A DNA stretch of 64,000 bases from Porphyridium purpureum (GCA_008690995.1 VRMN01000003.1:682001-746000); one strand, 5' to 3'; counted from the stretch's first letter, positions 51,753 through 64,000 are shown. Translations and numbers: made by a program. Notes: generated from the letters alone by a model not told the origin.

Positions 51753-51944
51753 TCTTATCACCGCTCGTCTTCTCCTCAATCCGGCCCAACCAGTCTCGAG
51801 ACGGCATCCTTTTGCTCCTGCCGTTCCTCTGTCGTCAAGGTCGCGTTAGCAGCCGCCACTAATCGCTGATTGGATAAGGGATGCCCGGGCTCGTACGTTT
51901 CATCTTCAGTTAGCCTGGCTGGAGTGGCGTGTGCAGACCCGAGC

Positions 51945-52865
51945 ATGGCGGTGGTAGAAGCAGCGGCATCGGTGGCAGCACCATGCCGGAGCATGTTGGA
52001 CCCGACGCAACTGCGCGAGATGGTGCGTGAATGGCTTCGAGAAGACATACCTGCAATGGACTTCGCAGGCGCAGTGGTAGGGAGCGACGTACGCACAGCA
52101 CACCTCCTGCAGAAATCACCAGGCATGCTGGCCGGGGTACCCTTTGTGGAGGCCGTGTTTGATGAACTGGGGATGCGCGTCGAGTGGGATCCGCATGTTC
52201 ACGAAGGCATGCGAGTAGAGCACACCGGCGCGGGCGAGAAGCGTGTCCTGGCTTCTGTGACGGGGCCAGCCGACGACCTGCTGAGAGCTGAACGCGTGGC
52301 TCTCAATTGCTTGTCGCGATGCTCCGGGATTGCCACGCGAGCAGATGACCTCATGCGGATTGCTGCGGCGCACGGCTGGCGAGGCAGAGTGGCGGCGACT
52401 CGCAAGACCACGCCGGGCTTTCGTGTGGTTGAAAAGTATGGGGTGATCGTGGGCGGTGCCGACCCGCATCGCATGAACCTATCGTCCATGATCATGCTGA
52501 AGGACAATCACGTGTGGAGCGCAGGCAACATAACAAAGTCTGTGCAGCGCGCAAGGGCGCTCGCGGGCTTTTCTGTTAAAATTGAGGTCGAGTGCCGCTC
52601 CCTCGACGAGGCGCGTGAGGCGTGTCATGCCGGTGCGGATGTGGTCATGCTGGACAACTTTGATCCACTTAATTTTAAGGAGACTGCAAGGGCCGTACGC
52701 AGCGAGTTTGCCCATGTAATCATCGAGGGGTCTGGTGGCCTTAGTGAGAGCACGCTTTCCGACTTCTTTTGCGAAGAAGCTGACGTTCTCAGCATGAGCA
52801 TCATGCAGAATTACCAGTGCGTAGACTTTAGCCTCAAAATTCAGCGTCCTTCAGCCGTCGGATGA
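51945..52865 (+). CDS. QPRT: Nicotinate-nucleotide pyrophosphorylase (quinolinate phosphoribosyltransferase)
   Basis: WLREDIP, AERVALN..RCSGIAT, TRKTTPGFR, HR, MLKDNH, KIEVEC, MLDNF, EGSGG, DFSLK. Confidence 0.95.
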   Translation: MAVVEAAASVAAPCRSMLDPTQLREMVREWLREDIPAMDFAGAVVGSDVRTAHLLQKSPGMLAGVPFVEAVFDELGMRVEWDPHVHEGMRVEHTGAGEKRVLASVTGPADDLLRAERVALNCLSRCSGIATRADDLMRIAAAHGWRGRVAATRKTTPGFRVVEKYGVIVGGADPHRMNLSSMIMLKDNHVWSAGNITKSVQRARALAGFSVKIEVECRSLDEAREACHAGADVVMLDNFDPLNFKETARAVRSEFAHVIIEGSGGLSESTLSDFFCEEADVLSMSIMQNYQCVDFSLKIQRPSAVG

Positions 52866-54073: not shown

Positions 54074-54493
54074 ATGGCCAAGCGTGGAGGAGGAGCAGCC
54101 GGAAGCAAGTTCCGCACGACACTGGCGCTTCCGGTGGCGGCGATCATGAACTGCGCAGACAACACGGGTGCGAAGAACTTGTACATCATCGCGGTGTACG
54201 GTGTTAGCGGCGTGCTGAATCGTCTGCCGGCGGCCGCCGTCGGCGATATGGTGCTCGCGACCGTGAAGAAGGGAAAGCCGGAGCTGAGGAAGAAAGTCAT
54301 GCCAGCGATTGTGATTCGGCAGAAGAAGGCTTGGCGCAGAAAGGATGGGGTCTACCTGAACTTTGAAGATAATGCGGGAGTCATTGTGAATCCGAAGGGA
54401 GAAATGAAAGGCTCTGCAATCACTGGCCCGGTAGCTAAGGAGTGCGCTGATCTGTGGCCACGTATCGCATCATCTGCCGGAAGCATCTTGTAG
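54074..54493 (+). CDS. RPL23: 60S ribosomal protein uL14 (L23)
   Basis: [65 protein letters not shown]. Confidence 0.98.
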
Positions 54494-54798: not shown

Positions 54799-57537
54799 CT
54801 AAGCATTAGCATCTTTTGATCGCTTGGCGAGCTCGACAAGCTCGTCCGCATCGTCTTTGTGTAGACGGTAAAAGTGCCGCTTCAACCCGCTAAATTGAAC
54901 AAACGACTCACCGCACTGGGAACATGTGTGCGGCTTCTGCTTCTCGTGAACCATTCGAATATGCCGGCGCAAGTTTGATTTGGCGACAAAAGTCGAATCA
55001 CATTGTGAGCAGATATGTACACCCTTGTCGCTAGCCGGAGTGGCCCCAACGTCTTGATCATTCCCGGCCGACATCGTCGCTATCGCCGCATAACTGGGAG
55101 CCCCGGGTGCTTCCCCGACGCCATTATTCCATCCAAGACTTCCGGCCTCTCTTGCTTCGCAAGAGGTGGCGACCGAAACCCCTACATGCAATGGCTGCTG
55201 CGTGATTCCATAATCAGCACGTGATACATCCCCCTGCAGAACACTGCCCAGGCCTCGATGGAGGGTGGAGCTGAAGGAGGCTTCGCCAAACGTAGGCATG
55301 CTTCTAAGATGATCCGAGAAGCTGCTGCGCGTGCCTTGTGGATTCGGAAAATCTAAAGAAGCCCCAGACACGCCAGCAGAGTTTGGGGCTTCCATCCATA
55401 AACCTGAGGCCAAAGGCCGCAAACCCTGTTGCTGGTGATGATACTGCTGCTGCTGCTGCTGCTGTTGCTGCTGTTGTTGCTGTTGCTGCTGTTGTTGCTG
55501 TTGTTGCTGTTGCTGCTGTTGCTGCTGCCGTGGCTGCTGCTGCATGCTCATCCGTGGCGACGGTGAAAATGGTAGAACGGAACCATGCTGCTGCAACTGC
55601 TGAAATCTCTGCAGATTCGAAAACGATCCGTACTCCGAAACTCCCTGAATGTACGTCCTCAAGGACCCGTCCCCAGCCATGCGGTCATATTCAGTTCCCA
55701 TGTTGGGGCGCACATGCTGTTGGTGTGATGTACCGCTCGGATCTGGCGTGTATACAGCTGCATGGCCCGAAGGACTAGAGGATGGAAAATCTGCGGGCAA
55801 AGTGTGGTTTGCTGTCGTAATAGGCGAATGCCCTCCGAATCCTTGCGACCACTGAGGGCGCTCTGAAGGCGGAGATACCGCGCTGAAAAAAGGCAGCTCA
55901 TGTGGATTGTCCGTTGTGGAGGATATACCACTCGTCGTTGTGTTCACATGAGTGCTCCGCTGACTCAAAAAGGTGGGTCGAACGAAGGCCGCTGGATTCG
56001 TCTTCGACTTCTCGTGAAAAGTATGACCGCTGAACTGGGCTTCCACAGCCGGTCCTGGCTTTTGCAACCTCCTCATCCACGGACTCATGTCACTCACAGG
56101 AGGCTTTGAGGCGGGAACACTTGTTGGCAGGGACACCGACCACTGAGCGGAAGTGGCCGGTGAAGTCCACGGATCATTTCTCGAGGCACCTTCTACGAAG
56201 TGAGGCAATCCCTGACCTGCGCCTTGACCTCTAGGCTCACGAACTGACCGCTTACCAGTGTCCCGGGTCGTCCACGAACCTGCCGCAGACGGTTCATCGG
56301 GCAAATCCAATGTGGCTAACGGGGTCGGTTCGCTTGCTACTTGTACCGGTTTAACGCTTTCGATGAAGCGTGGCTCCTTACTGACTTGGTTTGTAACTTC
56401 ACTCGCGTGCCACAAGTCGCGAGGATGCTTTTCTCCGGACAACCGACGTGCATCGGCTCGCTCTTCGTGTGGATGAGTTTGTTCCATTTCTCCTTCAAGT
56501 TCTGCATGTTCCGCAGTGACGCGAGATTCCTTGGCGTCCATCTTTTCTGCATTTTCTGCATCCTGGGCGTCCTCGACATAAGCAAACCGCGCGGGACGTT
56601 TCGAATAGTCCAGCACATTCCACCTTGAGCTGCTTGGAGCTTCTGAGAGAACATCTTCGGCGATGAGCTTGTACTGCTCCGGAGTTTCAACTTCCTCTTC
56701 TGCGTCATCATTGTCGAGCGAGCTCTGCTGCGGAAGCCCGAGCGGGTCGCGCCGCGACCACCCGGGAATAAAGTCCAGAAGACCCAGAGAATCAATGATT
56801 TCTGCATTAACTCGCGAAATTTGGTCCGGTGGTAAATGAAAATCAAAGCCGCGCAGCACTCGATATTCTTTTTCGAGCACGCGCCCACCTTCTCCAAAGT
56901 TTCGCACGCGCACCATGCCGTCTGCGTGGGGCACTTTACGCAGCTGCTGCACTAGGAGGTTCCAGCCGTCCATCCCGGAGGGAACATCCATGAGCATGTT
57001 TTGAGGAAGTTCGGAGTTGGCAGAGTCTGGCGACAAGTCCTCCACGACGGTACGCATGACAACCTTTCCCGCACCCTTGCCCAGTTCTGGAGCGTGGTTG
57101 AGCCAAATGACTTCGGCGCGCTTGGGGCCACGCATGCCAAACGTTGTGGTGGCGATCATAAAGGAGCCGTCTTCGTACCAGGCAAACTGCACAAAGTTGG
57201 AAGGGTCGTGCAGATCCACGACAAATCTGCGGGAGACTGGCGGCGAGTCATGGAGGCCCTTCCGAAAGACGGACGGCAGCGCGGGCCCGGTAATTGAGCC
57301 GAGGACGAAGTGCGAGTCGATTCGGTTAGCCACAAAAAGGGATTGAGAAATGCTGCGGTACTCCTTGCGCTCGTGCTGCGACATGGAGTGCGACGAGTAC
57401 GCCTTGTACACGAGCGCGTTCTCCACGTTGACCGCCGACACATTGCTTCGCCAGCCCGCGACGTCGCGTGCCGTCAGCCAGTCCCGGATATTATCATCAT
57501 CAAACACTTTGCGCAGGATATTCTTCACCTTGCCCAT
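54799..57537 (-). CDS. C2H2 zinc-finger transcription factor with polyQ and an unrecognised globular N-terminal domain
   Basis: Two C-terminal fingers CSQC...HIRMVH and CSQC...HFYRLH linked by EKQKPH; long low-complexity middle region. Confidence 0.88.
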   Translation of the reverse strand: MGKVKNILRKVFDDDNIRDWLTARDVAGWRSNVSAVNVENALVYKAYSSHSMSQHERKEYRSISQSLFVANRIDSHFVLGSITGPALPSVFRKGLHDSPPVSRRFVVDLHDPSNFVQFAWYEDGSFMIATTTFGMRGPKRAEVIWLNHAPELGKGAGKVVMRTVVEDLSPDSANSELPQNMLMDVPSGMDGWNLLVQQLRKVPHADGMVRVRNFGEGGRVLEKEYRVLRGFDFHLPPDQISRVNAEIIDSLGLLDFIPGWSRRDPLGLPQQSSLDNDDAEEEVETPEQYKLIAEDVLSEAPSSSRWNVLDYSKRPARFAYVEDAQDAENAEKMDAKESRVTAEHAELEGEMEQTHPHEERADARRLSGEKHPRDLWHASEVTNQVSKEPRFIESVKPVQVASEPTPLATLDLPDEPSAAGSWTTRDTGKRSVREPRGQGAGQGLPHFVEGASRNDPWTSPATSAQWSVSLPTSVPASKPPVSDMSPWMRRLQKPGPAVEAQFSGHTFHEKSKTNPAAFVRPTFLSQRSTHVNTTTSGISSTTDNPHELPFFSAVSPPSERPQWSQGFGGHSPITTANHTLPADFPSSSPSGHAAVYTPDPSGTSHQQHVRPNMGTEYDRMAGDGSLRTYIQGVSEYGSFSNLQRFQQLQQHGSVLPFSPSPRMSMQQQPRQQQQQQQQQQQQQQQQQQQQQQQQQQQQYHHQQQGLRPLASGLWMEAPNSAGVSGASLDFPNPQGTRSSFSDHLRSMPTFGEASFSSTLHRGLGSVLQGDVSRADYGITQQPLHVGVSVATSCEAREAGSLGWNNGVGEAPGAPSYAAIATMSAGNDQDVGATPASDKGVHICSQCDSTFVAKSNLRRHIRMVHEKQKPHTCSQCGESFVQFSGLKRHFYRLHKDDADELVELAKRSKDANA
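55444..55527 (-). repeat. (CAG/CAA)28 polyglutamine tract
   Basis: 84 nt of mixed CTG/TTG triplets on the + strand. Confidence 0.95.
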
Positions 57538-58150
57538 CCTGTCGGGAGCTCGTGCGCCAACACGCCGAGCCGAAGCATCCGCTCTGCGCACCCGCGCTGC
57601 ACCCGCGCTGCACCCGCGCGACGTTCACCCTTTTTCGGCAAGACGCAGCCGCACTCACCCAGCCCCTTGATAAAACCGCGTCACCTTCATCATGCGCGCG
57701 CAGCGCTGTGTGATAATTCCCGCCTAAATCCATATGAACGCGCGCACCAGCACAGCCGATTTATTTTACAACCCCGAACGCCAGCTCGCAGCCGCGCTGC
57801 CACGCGCGCTCACCTTGCGCGCGCCCCGCAGAACGCACGCGTACTGCTCACACTGTACACCACCTCTCACTGTACCGCACCGCCTGCCGAGCTGTACCGC
57901 GCGCGGAGGAGATTCGAGGTCAATGCTTTCGCTCGGTGGAGATGAGATCCCTGGCTAATGAAAACACCGCACCTGGATCCCTAACGATTCGCAGCCGCGC
58001 GTGGCGCTATCAGGGACGGTTGTGTCGGTCTCGGGGTTGGCGTGTCGCAGCGGGTTGTGGGTGGGAGAGAAGAGGGGTTAAGCAGGGTGGCGGTGGGGAG
58101 AGGCGGAGGGGCGACACGTGCACGTGACACGAGGGGAGCAGGCCGGAGAG

Positions 58151-59144
58151 ATGGCGTGCTTTGTGGGAGCAGCAACGTCCGCGCCGGTGCGAGGCACCCG
58201 CAGCGCCGTCGAGTCGGCCCGCGGAGCGCCGCGCCGCCGCGCGCCGCAGCCGCGCGCAGCTGCGCATGAAGCAGGACGACTACGAGCAGTGGAAGACCGA
58301 GTTCGCGGGCGGCTTCCCGGGAGGCGAGGCCTTCTACAAGAAGTGGATCGAGGAGGGCGCCAAGGGCGACGTGCCTGCGCTGGAAGAGGAGCTCCAGCCC
58401 AGGTCGCCCAACAAGAAACCCACCATTTACGAAGAGCAGATGATCTCGAACCGCGGACAGCAAAAGGGCGTGGACCCAACGTGGAAGACGCTGCTTGCGG
58501 GAGGATTCCCTGGCGGTGAGTTCTTCTTCAAAAAGTGGATTGGAGAGGGAGCTCAGGGCGAAGTGCCCAACCTGGACGCTGACCTGCAGCCGGGCTCTGG
58601 CAGTGCGAAAAAGACCGGGAAGAAGGAGGACGCGGACAAGTCCTCCCCTGGAGGTATCATGACGCCCGGCCGCATCATGGTTCCGTCTGGCCTGGGTGAG
58701 GAAGAAGAGACTGTGGACAAGGAAGCGCCACGGCCGGAGCTTTATAATAAGTACTTCTCAGCGGATCGCCTGCACAAGGCCCCAGAGATCCTGTTTGAGT
58801 ACAACAAAACCAAGTATGACCGCGTTGGCGTACGATACACGGAGGTCACGTCGAAAGCCTCGGAGCGATTCTTCCCCAAGTCCCGTATGAATAGGGCGCC
58901 AGTGATTGAAATCAGCTATCGCGAAGGCGCGGTGTCGACTGCCAGCGTTTCGCTGAGCATGCCAGAAATCAGCGGACCGCCCGCACTGCCGTTCCCTGTA
59001 CCAAAGGGTGACGTGACGACGACGATGGTGACGGACCCGACCACGGGAAGGCTGAAGCTTGAGTTCAAGGTAGACGGCGCAGCGGTCTCTGCGTACTCCG
59101 ATCCTCGTGCCACCGAGGCGTACAACAAAATGATCAGAAAGTAA
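58151..59144 (+). CDS. Probable nuclear-encoded phycobilisome (rod-core type) linker protein; apparent frameshift in the transit peptide
   Basis: Two repeats WKTxxAGGFPGGExFxKKWIxEGAxGxVPxLxxxLQP and two [YF]F.....xxAPxI motifs that I associate with red-algal linkers (recall, unverified). The MACFVG transit start at 58151 is out of frame with the LRM-KQDD mature region at 58266. Confidence 0.65.
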
Positions 59145-59274
59145 TGGTCATGTTTGACGACTGAACAAAATAAATAGTCCTCAGCTCTCCCCACCCTGAA
59201 AATGACCCTCGTTTGCATCCACCGGATTGGAGTGAAGGGAACAGATTCTCTTGTGGAACCGCAGCTCTTTGGCA

Positions 59275-59934
59275 ATGATATCCTTCGCGTTACCATTCTC
59301 TGATGGGGTTTTCATCGATGCAGTGAATGTTTTCGGTCGTCTGGCCGAGCAGGCACCTGTGGACTTCACATCGACCTACCGACGTTCCACGCAGCGCGCA
59401 GACTTTGCTTTGTGGCTGCCGTGCCGCTTCAGTCGTCGCTTGATGGTTTTGGATCCGCATTGGCGTGATGTTTTGTTCGCAGACAGCGTCAAAGGAAGGA
59501 ACGGGAGTCGCTCCATTGACTTGCAGCAATTTCAAGAAAGGATTCGATCGGCTACTTTCATGTATCCAATGGACGCCAACACAGGTCGCGCTGTGCGTCT
59601 ACCAGAGGGATTCAGTAGTGTCGCAATGTGGGGCTCGAACGGCGATATCAATGGGTCCTTACAGCGCCTCGCGAAAAGGGCTAGAGACGCCGACGGCCAG
59701 GTAGAGCCTGTCGACACGCTGCTTAGAGATGTCCAAGCGTGGTTTCAAGCCCGACAGATTGGGACCCAATTTCTGGAGCGCGCCTTTGAAGTTCTGGGCA
59801 GCGATTTGACAACCAACACATTGTCTCGAGATAGCGTGGAAATTACGATTCTGCAGCTTGCGCGGGCCGTCGACCCGGATCCTAGCGACGCTGTGCTCGA
59901 TTGGACCACTTGGGTCCATGCGCTTACGCAATGA
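59275..59934 (+). CDS. Hypothetical protein (about 219 aa)
   Basis: ATG-started ORF with protein-like composition; no motif recognised. Confidence 0.5.
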   Translation: MISFALPFSDGVFIDAVNVFGRLAEQAPVDFTSTYRRSTQRADFALWLPCRFSRRLMVLDPHWRDVLFADSVKGRNGSRSIDLQQFQERIRSATFMYPMDANTGRAVRLPEGFSSVAMWGSNGDINGSLQRLAKRARDADGQVEPVDTLLRDVQAWFQARQIGTQFLERAFEVLGSDLTTNTLSRDSVEITILQLARAVDPDPSDAVLDWTTWVHALTQ

Positions 59935-60374: not shown

Positions 60375-62495
60375 TCACCAAGCTGCCGCGTTCTGCAGGG
60401 AAAGCACAATTGCTCTCACATGACCGACTTGCATGGCATTCAGCTCTGATGCTGGTGGATCGCTTGACTGTTGCACAATCATTTCGACGATGAACTTCAG
60501 ATCTTGACCCTGCGTGAGCAGATCTCGAATCGTCTTCAAACCATTATCTTCAAACTCTCTCGAATAGAGCTCAAACTCACTTCCCAGCGAGGTCATGAAG
60601 TCGGGAATGCTCATTGAGCTTGCAATCTTACACACTTCCAGTTCCTTGATGTCTTTCGCGGGGACCAATCCCTTTCTCACAAGCTCAGCGTGGGGCACCA
60701 CCCTGGCAGTAGCCCAGTCAATTTCGCGCCCGCATCCCGATTCACCAGGGGAAGATACTTGATGCGCACCAGACTTTGAGTCTGTATCGCCAAGGTCCTG
60801 CACAAGGGATTCTTGAACCCCTTTGTGCACCACTCTGAACACTCGGCGTATACCCGACAGATCCCTGCCGCCAAAGTCATCTCTCTTGCCTTTTAGAATT
60901 TTCAGCCTGCGAACGAGTCGGAACGGGTCGCTTCGGTCCTCGGTGTATTCGTAGCCGTACGGCGTATCACGCGGTACATCGTGGCCTTCGTCACGCTTCC
61001 GTACCGTGCCGCATATGTCCAACCTACTGCAGCCCCTTGGCTTCAAGAAAATGGTGTTACAATAAGGGCATGCCTTGAACACGTCGTACGATCCGTCAAC
61101 TGGATACTGCATAGCAACACCTCCCAGGACAGCGCTCAACTCAGCCGCCAGCACTTGTTTTACGTAGTTCAGGACTGCGATTCTTGCGTTCATTTCATCC
61201 TCGTTGCTTGCATCCAACCAAAGCTCATCCAGCGGCGCTCCGACAAGTTTAGCGGTGGCTTCCATCGCACATTCTTCAGAGCTGTCGTCTGAGAATTTGA
61301 AGATGATATCGATGGTGGGCCCAACCATATCCACATAGTTCCCTGAAATCTTCTTGTTCCCATGATCATAAGCTTTTCGATTCACTGCTGCAGACAATTC
61401 CTCGCGCGCCAACGCCGCCCGCGCAGCTATCTCGGACCGCGCGTCGAACAGAATATCCGCGAGGTCTGCGTTCTGGGGCTTGGGTATGTGAATAGGGAAT
61501 TCGCGGAGACACTCAACGAGCGGAATCTTGTAATTCGTATTCCAGTCCTTAGCATATCCAGCCAGCGCGACAATCGAATCGTACAGCCACTTCACTGACA
61601 CGTCTGGACCAACAATAGCGACTGGACCCACGAAAGGCAATCTCGATCGCACCTGGTCCACAAACTGTTGGTACTCAAAGAATGGCCGCTTTCCATCCAA
61701 CTGCGAGCGCGTTTTGATTTTGCTCACGTATGCATCTCGATGTGTGAGTACCAAGAAGACTTGGGTCCTTTTGAGCGGTTCGTTGGATGATCCCCGCTTC
61801 AACATCGTGACATGAATTCCGCCCTTATCCTTCTTGAACGTGTTGCAATTCAAAATGGAATCCAGGCTGTTTCCCTGGATTCCTGCAATGAAATCTTCAG
61901 CTCGGCATGATACGGGCAATGGTGCAACCAGCACAATTTGGGTCACATCGCCAGTGATCAACGCCTTACGGATTTCCATGGCTTCATCAAAAGCAATGCT
62001 TTGCCCCAGACCTGGCGTATCGACCACATTTAGATCTTTCGCAGGACCTTGCGTTCGCGCAGATACCATCTTCTTCGTGCAAGTCTGCGTCGCGTATGAA
62101 GTCAATCCAATATCTCCAGTGAGCTTCTTGTGCAACGAGGTCTTTCCACTACCCTGACCGCCCAGAAGCAACATGGTCTTGTTGACGAACGACGGCACCG
62201 CCTCTCTCATTTTGTAGTCTTCAACTTGCCTACGCACATGCTCCGGTAAAAAAAGCTCGCCCTTCGTCGGGTCATAGGATGGTGCCATTGGATCATTTTG
62301 GTATTGAGTCACAAGGACATCCGCATTAAGAACGTGATTCGCAACTTGCACCTCCAGCCACAGCTTCTCTGGAGTCTCTGCTGCAGCGACTATGACGCGC
62401 GCCTGCTCGTTCGGGTCCAGTAGGCGTCCAGCCATCCAGGGCTTCACCGTTCCGTCGTCGTTCCTGAGTGTGAATCCTTCATAGTCATAACACAT
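60375..62495 (-). CDS. TRAFAC/AIG1-like P-loop GTPase with Cys-rich Zn module and C-terminal SAM-like domain (in frame with the upstream MACPF ORF)
   Basis: G1 GGQGSGKT, G2 TCT, G3 VVDTPGL, G4 LVLTHRD; CPYC..KPRGC....CG...GCG..IDW; SIPDFMTSLG..FELYSREFEDNGL...GHVRAI. Confidence 0.8.
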   Translation of the reverse strand: MCYDYEGFTLRNDDGTVKPWMAGRLLDPNEQARVIVAAAETPEKLWLEVQVANHVLNADVLVTQYQNDPMAPSYDPTKGELFLPEHVRRQVEDYKMREAVPSFVNKTMLLLGGQGSGKTSLHKKLTGDIGLTSYATQTCTKKMVSARTQGPAKDLNVVDTPGLGQSIAFDEAMEIRKALITGDVTQIVLVAPLPVSCRAEDFIAGIQGNSLDSILNCNTFKKDKGGIHVTMLKRGSSNEPLKRTQVFLVLTHRDAYVSKIKTRSQLDGKRPFFEYQQFVDQVRSRLPFVGPVAIVGPDVSVKWLYDSIVALAGYAKDWNTNYKIPLVECLREFPIHIPKPQNADLADILFDARSEIAARAALAREELSAAVNRKAYDHGNKKISGNYVDMVGPTIDIIFKFSDDSSEECAMEATAKLVGAPLDELWLDASNEDEMNARIAVLNYVKQVLAAELSAVLGGVAMQYPVDGSYDVFKACPYCNTIFLKPRGCSRLDICGTVRKRDEGHDVPRDTPYGYEYTEDRSDPFRLVRRLKILKGKRDDFGGRDLSGIRRVFRVVHKGVQESLVQDLGDTDSKSGAHQVSSPGESGCGREIDWATARVVPHAELVRKGLVPAKDIKELEVCKIASSMSIPDFMTSLGSEFELYSREFEDNGLKTIRDLLTQGQDLKFIVEMIVQQSSDPPASELNAMQVGHVRAIVLSLQNAAAW

Positions 62496-62498
62496 CTC

Positions 62499-63743
62499 CT
62501 ACACGCTGTCCCACAACCGGACGGGGGACGAGATGAAGCCGTTGCCAATATATCCATGCAAGATGTTCTCCTCTCCACTTCCAAGATCCAACTGTGGAAT
62601 CTCCTTCGTCGGTGGGACGCGCCCAACGAGCTCAGCCAAAGGGAGCTTGCGGTACTCCCAGCATTCCGTCGACTTTTTCTCAAGACGGGCAATCTCAGCG
62701 TCCACTTGGTTCTCATACGGACGAAGCACAAGCTCACGCTCCCTTGCCGAGCATCCGTGCACGGTCCAACGCTCCATCTTAGCGCTTTCGAGGCGCGCCT
62801 TCCAAAGAGAGGCGACCGCAAGGCACTCGCCCACAGTTTGCATCTTTTCGTCCAGCAAGGATGCCTCGGCTCTGCTCAACTGGGTGAGGTAATTTGCGAT
62901 GTTCGCGAGCGAAAACCCAACAACAGTCATCCGGTCCGTGCGTGTCAAATCCTCCAGGTCCTGGTCGGCGCACTCCTGCAAGGCCTTGGAGTCAGCGTTG
63001 AATTCCTCAATCAGCTTCACTACTTCGTCCAGATTCGGCGTCGCAGGACAAACGAAGTTGACTCCGCTCGCAGTTGCAGAAATCTCGAGCGAAAGCTGGT
63101 AAGAGCTTTCCTCATTTCGGCGAGCGAAGTCGGCAGAAAACTCCACCGACAGAGGTCTCACACCAATAGCTCCCTTCAGCTTGGCCATAATATCCGACAG
63201 ATCCGTATCCTCCGAAGAAGTGACTGAAAACTGCACGTCCAGCTGGCACCCGAAGAAAATCTGGTCCACAAACTTTGTACCATACCGATCGGCGATGTCA
63301 TCTCTACCAAACTCGTTTGATGCCAGCATCGACGCGAGGTCGCTGACGGGCTCAAGCATGCCTTTGTCGCCCTGCTTTATCTGGGCAAGGGAGTGGCAAA
63401 CACGGCTTCTGTACCGCAGCGTAGACCTGCGCGAAGTATGAACCGATTGCGAGAGATACGTTCCGGAACCTGCGCCAGAGATAAGCGGTCCGTACGAAAC
63501 GCTCAAGTGGCCTGCGATTTCCATGTGCTTTTTGACTTTGTCATCCGAATCCATGATCTCGCAGAAGACAGACGCATGCTTCGCGGTCTTGAAGACTGTG
63601 CGCCCGTCATCCACCTTGAACGCACGACGCTTGAAGGCTTCCTCACCGCTCTGGATGTTGAGTTTGAACCCGCGGCCGAGGTCGTACGCAGACAGGCCCT
63701 GGGGAAAGCCGTTGCCTACAATGACAGGAACGATCTGCACCAT
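62499..63743 (-). CDS. Stonustoxin-like MACPF/CDC pore-forming domain protein
   Basis: EIMDSDDKVKKHMEIAGHLSVSYGPLISGAGSGTYL and YGTKFVDQIFFG resemble the stonustoxin N-terminal domain and the MACPF YGTHF...GG signature; followed by a helical region. First ATG at 63743. Confidence 0.72.
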   Translation of the reverse strand: MVQIVPVIVGNGFPQGLSAYDLGRGFKLNIQSGEEAFKRRAFKVDDGRTVFKTAKHASVFCEIMDSDDKVKKHMEIAGHLSVSYGPLISGAGSGTYLSQSVHTSRRSTLRYRSRVCHSLAQIKQGDKGMLEPVSDLASMLASNEFGRDDIADRYGTKFVDQIFFGCQLDVQFSVTSSEDTDLSDIMAKLKGAIGVRPLSVEFSADFARRNEESSYQLSLEISATASGVNFVCPATPNLDEVVKLIEEFNADSKALQECADQDLEDLTRTDRMTVVGFSLANIANYLTQLSRAEASLLDEKMQTVGECLAVASLWKARLESAKMERWTVHGCSARERELVLRPYENQVDAEIARLEKKSTECWEYRKLPLAELVGRVPPTKEIPQLDLGSGEENILHGYIGNGFISSPVRLWDSV

Positions 63744-64000
63744 TTTGAATCCCACACCGCCCTGTGCCCCGTCCGCTATCAACACTCCATTTTTTCTGGA
63801 AGACGAGTGCCCTTGCCCAATTCAGATTCACAACCTCCACGCCTTGCCCTCGTGCGTCCCAACATGGCTTCCTCAGCCTTCTTCTCGATCTACTTTCAGC
63901 TTATGTAACCCATCAGGAGAACTCATGTCCAACCTTGCGTTGCATGAGGATCGCTCACAAGTTCGTTGTCGCGGTGAGTGGACATCATGACTTCGTTCGC

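Follow-up and report, generated by a model that had tools for sequence, protein, structure and literature searches.

The window analysed here, a stretch of 64,000 nucleotides of Porphyridium purpureum DNA, carries on its minus strand a gene interrupted by an in-frame amber codon (62501-62499). With a probability of roughly two in three, this codon is a genuine recent nonsense mutation in a decaying duplicate and not a recoding signal. An earlier note on this DNA had listed several explanations for the stop, and that of a recent nonsense allele is the best supported of them, given that the stop is derived and both paralogs possess a sense codon at its position. Because the ancestral MGQ start appears to be lost, ribosomes would be expected to start at 63743 and, as in eukaryotic translation generally, to terminate at the UAG. 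The product would be at most a fragment of 414 aa deprived of the membrane anchor, of half of its last domain and of all regulatory domains. The mRNA would probably be subject to nonsense-mediated decay, and the downstream ORF would be left untranslated.

As assembled, the minus strand reads TGG GAC AGC GTG TAG GAG ATG TGT TAT at the junction (all features described below are located on this strand). The single in-frame TAG-GAG-ATG reported earlier is present in the assembly at 62501-62493. The ATG (62495-62493) lies two codons past the stop, in the same frame and with 3 nt between them, and has G at -3 and T at +4. The upstream ORF (63743-62499) comprises 414 aa counted from its ATG, and the downstream ORF (62495-60375) comprises 706 aa and ends at a TGA (60377-60375). 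The description of both halves as otherwise uninterrupted was also correct, the two frames being open and in register; the amber codon is the single internal lesion across 1122 codons, with no further stop or frameshift in either ORF. Translation through the stop, which is codon 429 of the read-through product and was read as X, gives 1136 residues. An exact look-up of the two ORF products found neither of them (0/2) in the protein collection.

The homolog search using the read-through translation found three proteins among 7996 candidates, all belonging to Porphyridium purpureum and each encoded on a different contig, namely FVE85_1717 (P0002), FVE85_6619 (P0003) and FVE85_8653 (P0004). From the first Met onwards, the sequence of FVE85_1717 agrees with the window translation and differs from it by nothing but a gap of 43 residues that runs up to the stop, which identifies it as the public model of the locus. 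The two other proteins are continuous over the junction, with Glu in the column of the stop and Val in the column of the ATG. The presence of Glu in both paralogs indicates that the stop is derived and specific to the FVE85_1717 copy. It is likely that FVE85_6619 represents the working copy. No stand-alone form of 227-725 aa was found among the 7996 candidates, and each half used as a separate query returned the same three proteins among 7998, with no near-identical stand-alone form. The 64-kb window contains no additional paralog. A metagenome scan yielded 258 pattern matches, none of which was confirmed, and the top scores obtained with the ESM Atlas were 0.82-0.88, under the lead threshold of 0.9. 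The FVE85 gene identifiers are absent from seven supplementary files of PMC6811547.

The paralogs share an architecture comprising a MACPF-like domain, an AIG1/IRG-like GTPase, a Cys cluster and a SAM-like end, and the domains recognised earlier, a pore-type fold and a GTPase, hold by profile, Pfam and fold matches. The upstream ORF encodes the MACPF/CDC-like fold (about 63743-62900; profile, Pfam and model matches), the helical bundle that follows it (about 62870-62650) and the first half of a conserved beta-rich domain. A profile of the pore half made of 67 sequences matched stonustoxin beta with an E-value of 6.5e-5, and PF01823 was matched by 8 of the 67 relatives. The AlphaFold2 model of the intact paralog FVE85_6619, built from 67 sequences, had a mean pLDDT of 76.6, with values mostly of 80-95 over residues 50-420. 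The top Foldseek matches of this model were MACPF structures (best E 4.6e-7), and its N-terminal fold matched TgPLP1, GNIP1Aa, complement C8/C9, MPEG-1 and stonustoxin at 9-14% identity. The MACPF core fold is recognisable in the predicted structure, and the role in pore formation is a predicted one.

The downstream ORF comprises a remnant of the cut domain of about 50 aa, the GTPase, a helical region, the Cys cluster (61070-61011) and the SAM-like C-terminus. The AIG1/IRG/Toc-like GTPase possesses a P-loop (GGQGSGKT, 62162-62139, conforming to GxxGxGKT) and a DTPG motif, matches PF01926 (E 1.3e-5), with the AIG1 score under the Pfam cut-off, and resembles Irga6 (IRGa6), GIMAP7 and Toc33 in fold or sequence. 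The C-terminal match to SAM_CEP-1_C (E 0.0024) is weak and below the cut-off. A point against a plain nonsense allele is that the new ATG, with its purine at -3, lies ahead of an entire GTPase module, of a type found elsewhere as a separate protein.

The earlier note placed the TAG between the pore domain and the GTPase, but the comparison with related proteins places it about 50 residues before the family boundary, inside a conserved domain. The stop corresponds to profile position 415. The position of the boundary was estimated from 104 unselected non-self matches with E<=1e-10. Among them, 57 pore-side matches reach position 400; 45 of these extend at least 20 residues beyond the stop, in 33 the match ends at profile positions 455-490, and no protein of this group terminates ahead of projected position 450. 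On the GTPase side, 19 matches begin between positions 400 and 560, and these start at 464-528. The natural boundary of the pore and GTPase modules in the family can thus be placed approximately at 62360-62275. The domain cut by the stop (62597-62361) is beta-rich and closes the pore module, with a GxxG motif before the stop and YxGF, PWMxG and TPExL motifs after it. Conservation was assessed in 47 relatives, picked as spanning the junction region from the 144 matches of a profile search over 1.84 billion representatives. Near-invariant residues occur both before the stop (P397, 98%; G411, 98%; G414, 100%) and after it (G437, 100%; P449, 96%; G453, 100%; L475, 91%). In the AlphaFold2 model of FVE85_6619, the stop column lies within a run of strands with pLDDT under 50, so the boundary argument is based on sequence. 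Judged in this way, the stop splits the terminal domain of the pore module in two, some 50 residues ahead of the module boundary, and the short, the reinitiated and the annotated spliced forms would all have a broken domain.

A probable second lesion concerns the start of the gene. The Met of the MGQxxS N-terminus of the paralog is replaced by ATT in the window (63821-63819), with two in-frame TGA codons just upstream, and this probable loss of the start codon would point to decay. The N-terminus of FVE85_6619 is MGQSYS, and P0005, a distant fused relative, also begins with MGQ; the MGQxxS pattern, recognised by a simple regular expression, resembles a myristoylation motif. Within the 26-codon leader, 14 of 26 residues are identical to residues 13-38 of FVE85_6619, and further upstream 1 of 12. 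In FVE85_8653, too, the annotation begins at a later Met; this copy may therefore share the start lesion, or FVE85_6619 may be alone in having the MGQ start. Besides, the annotated end of FVE85_8653 no longer matches the SAM-like region, which suggests that decay is not confined to one copy of the family.

The window copy has few substitutions at conserved sites (5/65 versus 17.3 expected, p 1e-4), and this is also seen for the downstream ORF taken alone (4/50 versus 11.7 expected, p 0.004). About 4% of point changes would make stops, and the absence of a second stop bounds the neutral drift of the downstream ORF at approximately 3%. As conserved sites have been avoided and no further stop has appeared, the loss is read as recent. 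Either the lesion may be young or the downstream ORF may still be selected, the protein comparison fitting both equally; the constraint on this ORF agrees with continued selection as well as with a recent stop. Relaxed selection past the stop was also considered. The changes unique to the window copy number 18 upstream and 62 downstream (p 0.001 against FVE85_6619), but FVE85_8653 is skewed alike (30 upstream and 91 downstream, p 0.74), and in the GTPase half each of the three copies has a longer branch. The apparent excess of downstream changes, being common to FVE85_8653, was therefore discarded as evidence of relaxed selection. No copy-specific acceleration of the window copy was detected.

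Several other explanations of the stop have to be weighed against a nonsense mutation. It is unlikely that the TAG is an error of the assembly or of the consensus, or one allele of a heterozygous site, in a gene that is really intact. The occurrence of just one internal lesion in the whole coding length, with constraint preserved, would suit an error, as would the use of Nanopore reads in a hybrid assembly. However, PMC6811547 describes a Nanopore-Illumina hybrid assembled with MaSuRCA, which is Illumina-based, followed by an extra Illumina correction step, and this correction lowers the odds of a base error. Reads mis-mapped from the paralogs would be expected to favour the paralog base, and the other apparent lesion, that of the start codon, also argues against an error. 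There is only a slight chance that the public model reflects real cryptic splicing, in which the new TAG would serve as a 3′ acceptor and a protein of 1079 aa with an internal deletion would be made. The segment removed as an intron in FVE85_1717 (62627-62499, 129 nt) was deduced from the 43-residue gap and not from the record. It has GT-AG ends and keeps the frame; GTGTAG/G is a plausible acceptor, and a frame-keeping GT is found 129 nt upstream of it. According to PMC6811547, the gene models were produced by BRAKER2 trained with RNA-seq, so the annotated intron might have read support. The donor (CTC/GTTGGG) is nevertheless weak, and the segment contains none of the branch motifs CTRAC, YTRAY, TAAC and TGAC, these splice consensus motifs being general ones and not trained on Porphyridium purpureum. 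The GC content of the segment (56%) is exon-like, the 43 "intronic" residues that it encodes have 88% identity with either paralog (85-86% for the whole upstream ORF), and they include P397 and the invariant glycines G411 and G414. The number of introns in the entire genome, as given in PMC5880011, is about 245, which also speaks against splicing here. The annotated intron is likely an artefact produced by a gene finder stepping around the stop.

Programmed type III UAG-G readthrough, which would yield a short pore protein and a longer, regulated one, was the lead option of the earlier note and appears highly improbable. The locus resembles gag-pol of MuLV in that two long frames, open in one register, are divided by an in-frame UAG with G as the next base. 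The UAG-G context is formally present, but it is common background: in 28 ORFs of the window, the next base is G for 134 of 507 GAG codons and for 2 of the 11 ordinary TAG stops. A sense codon in the paralogs was among the grounds named beforehand for abandoning readthrough; the paralogs were checked for a stop at the same position, and a sense codon (Glu) was found in 2/2. The stop is also missing from the fused relatives P0005 and P0149, and the short form would end in the middle of a domain. In MuLV, as stated in PMC3159437, type III readthrough depends on a compact pseudoknot placed after a spacer of 8 nt; here the stop is non-conserved and lies inside a domain, and a spacer and strong structure are absent. 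The weak stem pointed out 3′ of the stop is indeed what the first 40 nt form at minimum energy (-5.9 kcal/mol), but it begins at +1 without a spacer and is no better than shuffled sequences (z -0.34; 64/200 shuffles as stable). Longer 3′ windows of 80, 100 and 150 nt gave z values of +0.21, +1.00 and +1.19, the folding with ViennaRNA covering the component hairpins of a possible pseudoknot. A search of Rfam across 62200-62800 gave no match at E<=1.

A nascent fission is improbable as well. It would imply that a GTPase-Cys-SAM protein is produced from the new ATG, by an internal transcript start or by reinitiation, and that the pore half is inactive or acts as a decoy. The ATG is found in the FVE85_1717 copy alone among the three paralogs, GTPase modules such as P0016 occur alone elsewhere, and the downstream ORF is still constrained. 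On the other hand, an in-frame ATG within two codons is expected 4.8% of the time, this one lies about 50 codons ahead of the natural start of the module, and homolog searches gave no protein that corresponds to the downstream ORF by itself. To reinitiate after a long ORF, ribosomes require an element of the TURBS type, whose motifs are typically located 40-90 nt upstream of the stop according to PMC5972666. The locus is similar to the TURBS systems of caliciviruses and influenza B in that the stop and the AUG are a few bases apart (3 nt) and UGGGA occurs upstream. Unlike in these systems, there is no overlap of stop and start, the paralogs have conserved neither of them, and the UGGGA (62513-62509) lies 7 nt before the stop, too near for TURBS motif 1. 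It is the sole UGGGA within 90 nt upstream of the stop, none being present at 40-90 nt; the other nearest one on the minus strand (62660-62656) is about 155 nt away. The motif occurs 114 times in the window (110.6 expected), and its presence near the stop was treated as chance. Thus, termination-reinitiation, also suggested earlier, lacks a correctly spaced TURBS motif. It is similarly improbable that a lipid-anchored, GTPase-gated MACPF pore protein of algae, itself an as yet undescribed and self-contained module of defence or cell death, has here lost its anchor and gained a stop and an ATG, a fission caught in the act. If that were true, the pore half would be disarmed and the GTPase-Cys-SAM half would be an independently translated sensor or regulator, like the stand-alone forms of other algae.

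Premature-stop alleles occur in duplicated defence-like gene families evolving by birth and death. The preferred reading of the TAG as a recent nonsense mutation brings the locus close to such families: the set of paralogs is small, with one apparently intact copy and the others bearing point lesions, and a recent stop is present in an otherwise constrained frame, the function here being putative. The stop itself is probably an ordinary new instance of a common thing, and FVE85_1717 is probably a public gene model in which a nonsense codon is masked by a false intron.

The intact fusion family is of greater interest than the stop. In the intact paralog, one protein combines a MACPF-type fold, a GTPase of the immunity type, a Cys cluster and a SAM-like domain. 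The fusion is a candidate for a regulated pore protein or a cell-death protein and could be of use in studies of immunity in unicellular red algae. Like proteins of the stonustoxin-like branch of the MACPF/CDC superfamily (PF01823, PF24674), it has a predicted N-terminal fold followed by a helical bundle. It differs from them in having no signal peptide, in the predicted lipid anchor (MGQ) of the intact copy, and in being fused to the GTPase, the Cys cluster and the SAM-like domain, with pore activity being a prediction. The GTPase shares the P-loop, the DTPG motif and the GIMAP7, Irga6 and Toc33 matches with GTPases of the AIG1/GIMAP, IRG and Toc34 types. Unlike these, it scores below the Pfam cut-off for AIG1 and forms part of a larger module in algae that also includes the Cys cluster and the SAM-like end.

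No paper describing a pore-GTPase-SAM fusion was found among the titles and abstract openings covered, subscription journals being outside this coverage, and the family appears to be undescribed. The fusion is also present, unbroken, in at least two distant relatives, P0005 and P0057/P0149, and the majority of relatives have one module only. The cluster of the stand-alone GTPase module P0016 includes a protein of the dinoflagellate Cladocopium goreaui, and the diatom Detonula confervacea is the other named source of cluster members. Both halves are also found separately in diatom and dinoflagellate data.

The family to which the broken gene (positions 60375-63821 of the window, minus strand) belongs joins a MACPF-like fold, an AIG1/IRG-like GTPase, a Cys cluster and a SAM-like domain in one protein. 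Its members also include the intact paralog P0003 (FVE85_6619) and the distant relatives P0005 and P0057/P0149, and two fused members carry MGQ at the N-terminus. A literature search for a paper describing this fusion family found none. Many other algal proteins contain the pore module too; their N-termini resemble signal peptides and their C-terminal domains are diverse, including ricin lectin, WSC, MORN and fn3 among the Pfam matches. The GTPase module also stands alone.

Where the paralog has its start Met, the window copy has ATT (63819-63821, minus strand). This is probably a lesion additional to the premature TAG; alternatively, ATT may serve as a near-cognate start. In the other paralog, P0004 (FVE85_8653), three conserved pore-domain columns are changed, the match to the paralogs ends after about alignment column 1070 and the SAM-like end is absent; the C-terminal divergence is possibly a frameshift or a mis-annotation. 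When the three paralogs were compared in 75-residue blocks (alignment A1), the pattern of copy-specific changes varied along the gene, which hints at gene conversion or mosaicism among them.

Tail-to-tail with the broken gene lies an ORF of about 220 aa (59251-59934, plus strand) with no Pfam match at E 0.05. The ORF at 58161-59144 (plus strand), containing the duplicated motif GGFPGGE-F-KKWI, had none at E 0.1 and may resemble a red-algal phycobilisome linker. Ordinary neighbours are quinolinate phosphoribosyltransferase (51870-52865) and ribosomal protein L23e (54074-54493), both on the plus strand, and a poly-Gln C2H2 zinc-finger protein (54799-57591, minus strand).
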